A stretch of DNA of 64,000 nt from Dermatophilaceae bacterium (lineage in GTDB: Bacteria > Actinomycetota > Actinomycetes > Actinomycetales > Dermatophilaceae): assembly GCA_044220725.1 (NCBI GenBank), contig JBGAQN010000001.1:6935-70934 (forward strand), read 5' to 3'. Positions 16,676 to 18,352 of this stretch are shown one piece after another. Position 1 is the first letter of the stretch. Each line of letters starts with the position of its first letter. The position numbers and the translations under genes are program-made. The notes beneath the pieces were generated by a model. It was not told the DNA's origin and ran no database searches. It saw only the letters and a list, made by a program, of their open reading frames with translations.

Positions 16676-16760
16676 GGAGTAACCGCTTCAGTGTTGGCGA
16701 TTCTTCGGTGCAGGGGCCCGAACGCGTAGAGAAACCCGTCGAGTGTTGGCGATTCGACAG
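16676..16760 (+). repeat. 52-bp-period tandem repeat, GTGTTGGCGATTC family, copy downstream of gdhA
   Basis: Leader GGAGTAACCGCTTCA, then GTGTTGGCGATTC at 16691 and 16743 (52 bp apart). It abuts the gdhA stop. Confidence 0.8.
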
Positions 16761-18110
16761 TCAGATCAGGCCGAGGGCCACCATCGCGTCCGCAACCTTG
16801 GTGTAGCCGGCGAGGTTGGCGCCCATGACGTAGTTGCCCGGGTCGCCGTATTCCTCCGCCGAGGCCAGGCAGCGCTCGTGGATGTCGGACATGATCTGCT
16901 GCAAGCGGACCTCCGTTGAGTCGAAGTCCCACGAGTCACGGCTGGCGTTCTGCTGCATCTCCAGGGCGCTCGTCGCGACGCCACCGGCGTTCGACGCCTT
17001 ACCAGGGGCATAGAGGACGCCGGCACTCTGCAGCACCCGCACCCCGTCGGGCGTCGTCGGCATGTTCGCGCCTTCGGCCACCAGGTGCACGCCGTTGGCG
17101 ACCAGGGTCCGCGCGCCCGCCTCGTCGAGCTCGTTCTGAGTGGCGCAGGGCAGGGCGACGTCGCAGGGAACGTCCCAGATCGACCCGCCCTCGATGTGCC
17201 GAGCGGAGGGGCGCTCCGCGGCATACTCGGTCAGCCGCCCGCGCCGCGCTTCCTTGACGTCCTTGAGCAGGTCGAGGTCGATGCCGGCCTCGTCGACGAC
17301 ATAACCGTCGGAGTCGGAAACTGCGAGCACCGTGCCGCCGAGTTGGTTGACCTTCTCGACGGCATAGATGGCGACGTTGCCCGAGCCGGACACCAAGACC
17401 CGCCTCCCGTCGAAAGACTCGCCCTTGACCTTGAGCATCTCCTCGGCGAAGAAGGTCACGCCATAACCGGTCGCCTCGGTGCGGACCTGCGAGCCACCCC
17501 AGGTGAGGCCTTTGCCGGTGAGGACGCCCGACTCGTATTGCCCAGTAATCCGTTTGTACTGTCCGAAGAGGAAACCGATCTCGCGGCCACCGACGCCGAT
17601 GTCGCCGGCCGGGACATCCTGGTATTCGCCGACGTGCCGATAGAGCTCGGTCATGAACGACTGGCAGAACCGCATGATCTCGGCGTCGGACCGGCCCTTG
17701 GGGTCGAAGTCGCTGCCACCTTTGCCGCCACCGATCGGCATACCGGTGAGGGCGTTCTTGAAGGTCTGCTCGAACCCGAGGAACTTGATGATCGACAGGT
17801 TGACGCTCGGGTGGAAGCGCAGCCCACCCTTGTAGGGGCCCAGGGCGGAGTTGAACTGGACCCGGAACCCACGGTTGATGTGTATGCCGCCCGCGTCATC
17901 GGTCCACGGCACCCGGAAGATGATCTGCCGCTCGGGCTCACAGATCCGGCTGAGGATCGACCACTTGATGTATTCCGGGCGCTTCCCGGCGATCGGCGTG
18001 AGGCTGTGGATCACCTCGAAGACGGCCTGGTGGAACTCCGGCTCGCCGGGGTTGCGCCGCAGGACCTCGTGGTACATCGGTTGGAGATTCGGATGCAGTT
18101 CCGTGGTCAT
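16761..18110 (-). CDS. gdhA: NADP-specific glutamate dehydrogenase
   Basis: C-terminal 449 aa of ORF 16761..18323: [30 protein letters not shown]...[25 protein letters not shown]...GSGNVAIYA. Confidence 0.95.
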
Positions 18111-18216
18111 GCGCACAGCGTAGGGAGGGGTCCGGGACGTAACGCGGCCGGGTGATCCGTCCGACATGACCCATCTCAACAGGCGAGAAGATGGCGCACG
18201 ATGGCCGGCTGGAGGA

Positions 18217-18352
18217 GGAGTAACCGCTTCAGTGTTGGCGATTCGACGGTGCTTAGCGCCCAACGCGTCAAGAGGTCCGTCGAGCGTTGGCGATTCGACG
18301 GTGCTTAGCGCCCAACGCGTCAAGAGGTCCGTCGAGTGTTGGCGATTCGACC
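18217..18352 (+). repeat. 52-bp-period tandem repeat, GTGTTGGCGATTC family, copy upstream of gdhA
   Basis: Same leader GGAGTAACCGCTTCA, then units starting at 18232, 18284 and 18336 (52-bp spacing). Each unit has an internal TCGACGG/CCGTCGA stem. Confidence 0.85.

Follow-up and report, generated by a model that had tools for sequence, protein, structure and literature searches.

The gdhA locus and its two repeat copies

In the 64-kb stretch of Dermatophilaceae genome analysed here (hereafter the window), gdhA, the gene of an NADP-type glutamate dehydrogenase, is flanked on each side by a copy of a non-coding element with a 52-bp period. The copy downstream of gdhA is referred to as W1 and the upstream copy as W2. 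The anatomy of the copies, their absence from the gdhA locus of relatives, the presence of the same element at unrelated loci, and its association with genes of the DUF559 family lead us to favour, with some reserve, a reading in which W1 and W2 belong, as orphan copies, to a dispersed family of modular, non-coding repeats and are no device built around gdhA. The features of the locus are as follows (L numbers denote loci from other genomes, introduced below).

15287–16645, + strand: gene for a 452-amino-acid (aa) protein, convergent with gdhA; no Pfam family; orthologue in L075 and L077
16646–16675, + strand: C-rich tract GCACGGCCCCCTCCTCCCGCACCCCCCGGC, seen in the sequence directly outside the W1 leader
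16676–16690, + strand: W1 leader GGAGTAACCGCTTCA (exact match); its core GAGTAACCGCTT is common to L096, L110, and L133
16691–16742, + strand: W1 unit, consisting of the box GTGTTGGCGATTC... and a diverged spacer; identical to the W2 unit at 39/52 positions
16743–16758, + strand: W1 terminal box GTGTTGGCGATTCGAC, ending 2 nt from the gdhA stop codon (16761–16763)
16761–18110, − strand: gdhA, 449 aa; the true start is the ATG at 18110, as aligned with homologues
18117–18122, − strand: TACGCT, candidate −10 box within the motif CTCCCTACGCTG, 6 nt ahead of the gdhA start; conserved between the window and both L075 and L125
18217–18231, + strand: W2 leader (exact leader match)
18232–18335, + strand: two 52-bp W2 units (18232–18283 and 18284–18335), one base apart (51/52 identity; Tandem Repeats Finder, TRF)
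18336–18351, + strand: W2 terminal box, from the sequence and box matches
18350–18359, + strand: right arm ACCGAAGCGG of the W2 terminal inverted repeat (inverted-repeat search), 6 nt from the stop codon of gene X
18366–19835, − strand: gene X, pyridine-nucleotide-disulphide-oxidoreductase-like, 489 aa (Pfam Pyr_redox_2); orthologous fragments in L075 and L125

The initial annotation had named gdhA, and this minus-strand gene is genuine: both dehydrogenase domains, ELFV_dehydrog and ELFV_dehydrog_N, are present in its product (Pfam, E 2e-87 and 2e-51). The nearest named homologues, at ~80% identity, belong to Intrasporangiaceae (Nostocoides, Tetrasphaera, and Phycicoccus); a look-up of the exact GdhA sequence returned no entry. 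Gene X, which shares the strand of gdhA, lies upstream of it, and its stop codon is in frame with gdhA, with 85 intervening codons free of stops (16761–18368, minus strand). The mechanically called open reading frame (ORF) of 520 aa at 16761–18323 therefore adds 71 codons to gdhA by running through W2. A database homologue of 487 aa (P0001) is likewise an over-extended gdhA call, though its locus carries no array.

Part of the description given in the initial annotation was borne out. The 64 kb contain exactly two instances of the 15-nt leader GGAGTAACCGCTTCA, one at 16676 and one at 18217. Both are on the plus strand, and the two copies share one orientation. The boxes start at 16691, 16743, 18232, 18284, and 18336, with a spacing of exactly 52 bp within each copy. 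The element is non-coding, as had been supposed; its period is no multiple of three, and the ORFs crossing the arrays are shadows or an over-extension of gdhA. Six-frame translations of the element gave no match at E≤10. A 39-aa read-through peptide had a single match in the representative library (P0241), which is an unrelated, highly repetitive protein and was discarded as a false positive. With up to 3 mismatches allowed, the 16-nt box matched 7 times in the window, compared with an expectation of 0.77. TRF reported 18234–18351, in W2, as a repeat of period 52 with 2.3 copies, 98% matches, and a score of 229, and the repeat search detected an 89-nt direct repeat of 82% identity between the gdhA flanks. 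The longest perfect identities between W1 and W2, which are 1.54 kb apart, are 28 bp and 23 bp.

Other parts of that description had to be corrected. The downstream unit had been taken to be the same as the upstream one; the W1 and W2 units are only 75% identical, and the near-perfect identity is confined to the two W2 units, whose single-base difference indicates a recent tandem duplication. The TCGACGG/CCGTCGA stem ascribed to every unit is present in the W2 units but not in W1, which reads CTTCGG...CCGTCGA. A pair of 7-bp palindrome arms surrounds each W2 box. Nor does the upstream array fill the gdhA 5' region, as its end is 106 nt short of the start codon. Two features had been overlooked, namely the C-rich tract outside W1 and the 10-nt, 90% inverted repeat that bounds W2, in which CCGCTTCAGT at 18224–18233, in the leader core, pairs with 18350–18359. 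Both copies end beside a stop codon that belongs to a gene on the minus strand, gdhA for W1 and gene X for W2; the stop codon of the convergent 452-aa gene is 30 nt ahead of the W1 leader.

The general plan of the element is a leader with the core GAGTAACCGCTT, n modules of box and spacer, and a closing box. Each module comprises a partly palindromic box of ~20 nt (CGAGTGTTGGCGATTCGACGG) and a fast-evolving spacer of ~32 nt, and one box thus follows another at intervals of 52 bp, or about five turns of the helix.

The gdhA flanks in related genomes

The window was compared with the loci of the four closest GdhA homologues, L075 (91% amino-acid identity), L125 (88%), L077 (86%), and L126 (85%). 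L075, L125, and L077 are syntenic with the window in their flanking genes (blastn, 83–86% nucleotide identity), and L126 aligned across gdhA alone. The contig of L126 covers 55 nt upstream of gdhA, that of L125 ends just past the gdhA stop codon, and L077 has another upstream gene. At every covered gdhA flank (the downstream one in L075, L077, and L126 and the upstream one in L075 and L125), the element was found neither by nhmmer nor by eye, indicating that gdhA works without it. L075 carries a perfect 16-bp hairpin at the position of W1. In L077 (11440–13459) and L126 (1480–3499), an ArsR-type regulator and two cation-efflux genes lie between gdhA and the convergent gene, and this three-gene insert marks the gdhA 3' gap as a recurrent rearrangement site in the group.

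The spacer between gene X and gdhA contains a sole block conserved among the window, L075, and L125, which is CTCCCTACGCTG followed by 5–6 nt and the start codon. From this block, TACGCT is predicted to be the −10-like box of a leaderless-type gdhA promoter, placed between W2 and gdhA. A consensus scan of 16500–18500 for promoters and terminators returned no site, and no sigma-70-like promoter was seen in the W2 array. Judging from these comparisons, the element was most likely gained in this lineage, next to the stop codons around gdhA.

Related arrays and their association with DUF559 genes

A metagenome scan for two box cores 35–47 nt apart returned 34 stretches, and the true matches were L096 and L110. 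These are orthologous loci, 89% identical across 5.5 kb, in related Micrococcales-type metagenome DNA. Each contains two copies of an array made of leader, box, 52 bp, and box, inverted around a gene for a 318-aa protein. The first copy directly follows folA, whose TAA stop codon lies inside the leader GAGTAACC, and the second, inverted copy directly follows the stop of a convergent gene. Homology between L096 and L110 stops within ~20 nt outside the right-hand leader, past a C-rich tract, and the neighbouring genes differ beyond this point. An independent blastn match between the window and L096/L110 supports a common family, here called family A, as does the exact leader 12-mer that the window has in common with L096, L110, and L133. 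An nhmmer model built from six copies matched W1 and W2 with E about 1e-24; this match is not an independent test, because W1 and W2 are among the six. The leader 12-mer GAGTAA(C/G)CGCTT was found, among the 133 loci retrieved, solely at such flanks of DUF559 genes, and no match to the element was found in viral contigs, plasmids, or phages.

Ten strain-level variants of L096 all had the same number of units; the variation in this locus consists of 10-nt insertions or deletions in the G/C-rich tract outside the leader. C-rich tracts also stand ahead of the leader in L096, L122, and L133 and are hypervariable between strains. Such tracts lie outside the leader in most copies (16646–16675 in the window; 4283–4318 and 5533–5560 in L096; 1415–1498 and 2749–2800 in L133); the opposite strand is G-rich, and some of the tracts fit a G-quadruplex pattern. 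Of the ten short Logan contigs that represent the L096 locus, seven begin at leader base 1 or 2.

The product of the 318-aa gene enclosed in L096 and L110 belongs to REase_MTES_1575/DUF559. In its AlphaFold (AF2) model, built from 69 homologues with a predicted local distance difference test (pLDDT) score of 93, the N-terminal half resembled the AbiEi antitoxin (6y8q, structure match, E 1.3e-3) and the C-terminal domain resembled the catalytic domain of the homing endonuclease I-Bth0305I (3r3p, E about 0.09, TM-score 0.75–0.79 over the target) as well as a Vsr-like protein. These matches to the predicted model suggest that the enclosed gene encodes a fusion protein in which an AbiEi-like DNA-binding domain is joined to a PD-(D/E)XK nuclease of the DUF559/Vsr type.

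Five further homologues, with 54–63% identity to the L096 protein, were picked without regard to repeats. Repeated boxes adjoin the DUF559 gene in all five, with a spacing of 51–52 bp in four of them:

L122: folA context as in L096 and L110; leader variant GAGTAAGCGCTTGAGTGTTGCCGAGTGGACGG on both sides, inverted; 45-nt units
L133: C-rich tract and GAGTAACCGCTTGACTGTGCACC on both sides, inverted; core GAGTAACCGCTT, then a 13-bp hairpin; boxes 51 nt apart
L127: 52-bp array of 2.6 copies, starting 20 nt past the gene stop
L124: 52-bp array of 4.5 copies beside the DUF559 gene
L128 (labelled Humibacillus): two boxes CCGAG(A/T)GGTGGCTCGTGCGG, 51 nt apart

A second, sequence-distinct 52-bp array (family B) occupies 61004–61182 (+) of the window, with 2.8 copies and boxes CAGTGTGAGGAATTCGGG at 61017, 61069, and 61121. 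Its ends form a perfect 9-nt inverted repeat (61017–61025 with 61174–61182), and it fills the convergent gap from an SNF2 helicase gene (57464–60928) to a GNAT gene (61183–62334), being flush with the GNAT stop. Its architecture, period, and GAGTGT box start are those of the gdhA elements. The box start (C/T)GAGTG(T/G) is common to families A and B, L122, L127, and L128.

Upstream of every examined DUF559 gene, about 35–60 nt before the start, stands CCTGTGGA(T/C).... The longer motif CCTGTGGATAAC, which holds the DnaA-box-like TGTGGATAA, lies 35–40 nt upstream of the AbiEi-like/DUF559 starts in L096 (4430–4442), L110 (11809–11821), L122 (5425–5437), L127 (9952–9963), and L104 (12119–12130), and shorter variants (CCTGTGGAT and CCTGTGGAC) occur up to about 60 nt upstream in L124, L128, and L133. 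CCTGTGGATAAC is not present in W1 or W2. A DnaA-box or iteron reading, that is, a replication origin, which TGTGGATAAC near the L096 arrays had brought up, was rejected, as in all loci this motif is part of the region upstream of the DUF559 gene, and the window copies lack it. A reading of the box as a tRNA fragment or att site, from the motif TCGAATC, was also discarded, since it does not fit a T-arm.

Two further repeats of the window are recorded here. A 31-bp tandem array of 3.8 copies (TGAGTGCGGCGAAACGCGGTCCGCGTTCGGT, 27311–27427, +) starts at the stop codon of the ORF 26957–27313 and lies in the gap in which this ORF and a BatA/VWA gene (27493–28665, −) converge. The 3' part of gene X contains an in-frame 18-bp repeat of 3.9 copies (18562–18632, minus strand), and a stretch at ~18537–18676 fails to align with the L075 orthologue, for which reason the repeat looks like a lineage-specific low-complexity expansion.

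Interpretation and comparison with known repeat systems

In the reading that we favour, this lineage would have acquired copies of the element beside stop codons to the two sides of gdhA, and W2 would then have gained one module by tandem duplication, through slippage or unequal exchange. W1 and W2 are orphans, since the window contains no DUF559 gene and the two copies are direct and not inverted. They would be non-autonomous relatives of the inverted flanks of DUF559 genes, similar to miniature inverted-repeat transposable elements (MITEs) or mycobacterial interspersed repetitive units (MIRUs). That arrays outnumber DUF559 genes in the window, with family B in addition to W1 and W2, parallels the excess of MITEs over their autonomous relatives. 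The boxes may act at the DNA level as phased protein-binding or target sites, with the AbiEi-like/PD-(D/E)XK protein as the obvious candidate partner, a nuclease on which any spread would depend. A role at the DNA level is preferred to one in RNA because sequences without relation to one another keep the 51–52-bp period, because the boxes are in part palindromic, and because constraint falls on sequence but not on structure. Effects on gdhA would be at most incidental: W1 might provide a hairpin and a U-rich run after the stop codon, and W2 might set gene X apart from the gdhA promoter.

Several observations weigh against this reading. Only two copies were seen in the 64 kb, and the term dispersed rests on other genomes. 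No target-site duplication is present at either copy (the flanks read ...CCGGC|W1|AGTCA and ...GAGGA|W2|ATGGGC), and W1 is without an inverted terminal arm. Neither tblastn nor hmmsearch found a DUF559 homologue or remnant in the window. In L096, L110, and L122, which represent three diverged genomes, the DUF559 gene follows folA, a position that points to a long-term resident that is not obviously mobile. A scan of isolate genomes with GTTGGCGATTCNNCGGTGC yielded 74 single matches, all by chance, with a pattern that demands CGGTGC after the box and would miss copies of the L096 type. Furthermore, if the four relatives at the gdhA locus form one clade, a loss there would be as parsimonious as a gain here.

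A bolder version of the same idea, which we regard as rather doubtful, assigns the system to selfish, homing-like nucleases of Micrococcales. The 52-bp-phased boxes would be recognition or target sites of proteins combining an AbiEi-like winged helix-turn-helix with a Vsr/I-Bth0305I-like nuclease; the gene-bearing units would lie between inverted leader/box arrays, and orphan arrays would be non-autonomous derivatives or former targets. If this is true, it would be a mobile or selfish system founded on a PD-(D/E)XK nuclease with long periodic sites, distinct from MITEs driven by transposases and from repetitive extragenic palindromic (REP) sequences driven by REP-associated tyrosine transposases (RAYTs).

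It seems unlikely that the arrays were instead selected for folding, as terminators, as hairpins in the 3' untranslated region that stabilise mRNA, or as sources of small RNA derived from the repeats. The placement of copies directly after stop codons would suit such a role, W1 stands where L075 has its terminator hairpin, and the minus-strand minimum-free-energy (MFE) structure of W1 contains, directly after the gdhA stop, a 7-bp hairpin (CUGUCGA...UCGACGG) followed by the U-rich GUUUCUCU. A hairpin next to the L096 array also shows one compensatory change: the CGGGCC/GGCCCG hairpin after the second box (4400–4420, compared with the strain variants L112–L121) passes from C-G to U-A with one U-G intermediate. 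This hints at RNA-level selection of that hairpin, which is in the 5' region of the DUF559 gene. The initial annotation had called the units structured, a description that the folding analyses hardly sustain. With MFE compared to that of shuffled sequences on the two strands, z-scores were +1.16 and +0.48 for W1, no better than the shuffles, and −1.97 and −1.32 for W2, a marginal difference. RNAalifold on six family members gave a consensus of only about −12 kcal/mol, and compensatory changes supported 0 of 16 pairs on one strand, compared with 1 of 18 on the opposite strand. Rfam gave no match at the gathering score over the whole window or at E≤1 over 16600–18420, and the terminator scan mentioned above was likewise empty. 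Across the six copies, leader and box are invariant, whereas the 32-nt spacers diverge almost completely at constant length; together with the lack of covariation, this argues for constraint on the primary sequence and not on stems in RNA.

Binding of the phased sites by some host protein without relation to DUF559, be it a DNA-binding or a nucleoid protein, for which a 52-bp spacing would present one face of the helix, is in our view improbable. The period of 51–52 bp in the sequence-distinct families A and B and in the arrays of L124, L127, L128, and L133 would agree with it, as would the partly palindromic boxes. However, it comes with no candidate protein, and the DUF559 association in five of five independently chosen loci favours the DUF559 protein over a general factor.

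Least probable is the view of the initial annotation that the direct repeats make gdhA a functional unit, serving as recombination substrates for its amplification or deletion and, upstream, as a regulatory array: the shared orientation, the 1.54-kb distance, the perfect identities, and the location of W2 in the spacer between gene X and gdhA speak for it, but the element is absent from the covered gdhA flanks of four related genomes and present at unrelated loci, the conserved promoter-like motif is downstream of an array that contains no promoter-like site, the 82% identity of W1 and W2 is broken into short perfect tracts, and the unit number did not vary among the ten strain-level variants of L096. 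Recombination between W1 and W2 would be possible in principle, although identities of 28 and 23 bp are near the lower limit for RecA-type recombination.

Full-text searches of the literature for the box sequence, for DUF559 together with repeats, and for MTES_1575 found no description of the family or of its association with DUF559. The family, which apparently has not been described, is of the small dispersed-repeat kind, and the following comparisons place W1 and W2 among known systems. MIRUs were compared by description. Like the present element, with its 52-bp units in 1+ and 2+ copies, they are actinobacterial and intergenic, with units of 40–100 bp in short tandem arrays; most of those used for typing have 51–54-bp units. 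Both show filled and empty sites between relatives. A further likeness is that MIRUs contain imperfect terminal and internal inverted repeats (PMC3184786). MIRUs, however, carry a short ORF that is coupled to and overlaps the adjacent genes, the insertions taking place at start codons and giving a −4 overlap (PMC12548453, PMC3184786). The arrays described here abut stop codons, W2 is 106 nt from the gdhA ATG, and no bounded or coupled short ORF is present. They also lack the tetranucleotide direct repeats of filled MIRU sites, and the host is Intrasporangiaceae-like and not Mycobacterium. MIRUs occupy tens of dispersed loci per genome; the 64 kb of the window contain two loci of the present element.

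With MITEs, the element shares its small size (about 85–145 bp), its non-coding nature, and its presence or absence between relatives. W2 and family B have terminal inverted repeats of 9–10 nt, but one of the terminal arms is missing in W1; the ends look like the flanks of a longer unit that carries a gene, namely the leader and box inverted around DUF559 genes. Unlike MITEs, it has no target-site duplication, internal tandem 52-bp modules would be unusual, and the gene-carrying relative encodes an AbiEi-like/PD-(D/E)XK nuclease and no recognised transposase. The REP sequences of proteobacteria, which occur in very many copies, and their bacterial interspersed mosaic elements (BIMEs) are similar in lying after stop codons and in convergent gaps, in their GC-rich imperfect palindromes, and in their clustered modular arrangement. 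BIMEs alternate in orientation, whereas the present repeats are direct. The partner gene here is a DUF559 nuclease; no RAYT-type transposase turned up, no search directed at RAYTs having been made.

The model of the associated protein, in which the N-terminal half resembles AbiEi and the C-terminal domain the I-Bth0305I fold, suggests a further comparison. AbiEi binds repeats at its own promoter, and the boxes, which are partly palindromic and stand beside the gene, resemble such an operator or a homing target. In contrast to these systems, the present one includes neither an AbiEii toxin partner nor an intron or intein context, and its boxes flank the gene to left and right, while others stand as orphans at a long distance from genes of this type. 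A CRISPR array was rejected, as the W2 spacers are identical, spacers are homologous between loci, and no cas-like gene was noted beside the arrays among the ORFs checked.

For gdhA itself the finding means little, as it is an ordinary gene whose promoter is likely to lie outside the array. In practical terms, the arrays cause over-extension of start codons, as in the 520-aa ORF of the window, and may break short-read assemblies, many contigs with these DUF559 genes being only 1–2 kb long; they could also serve as strain markers. The architecture of a leader, partly palindromic boxes every 51–52 bp, and fast-evolving spacers recurs in families unrelated in sequence and beside every AbiEi-like/DUF559 gene examined, and thereby offers a testable handle on the role of the very common, uncharacterised DUF559 genes of actinobacteria.

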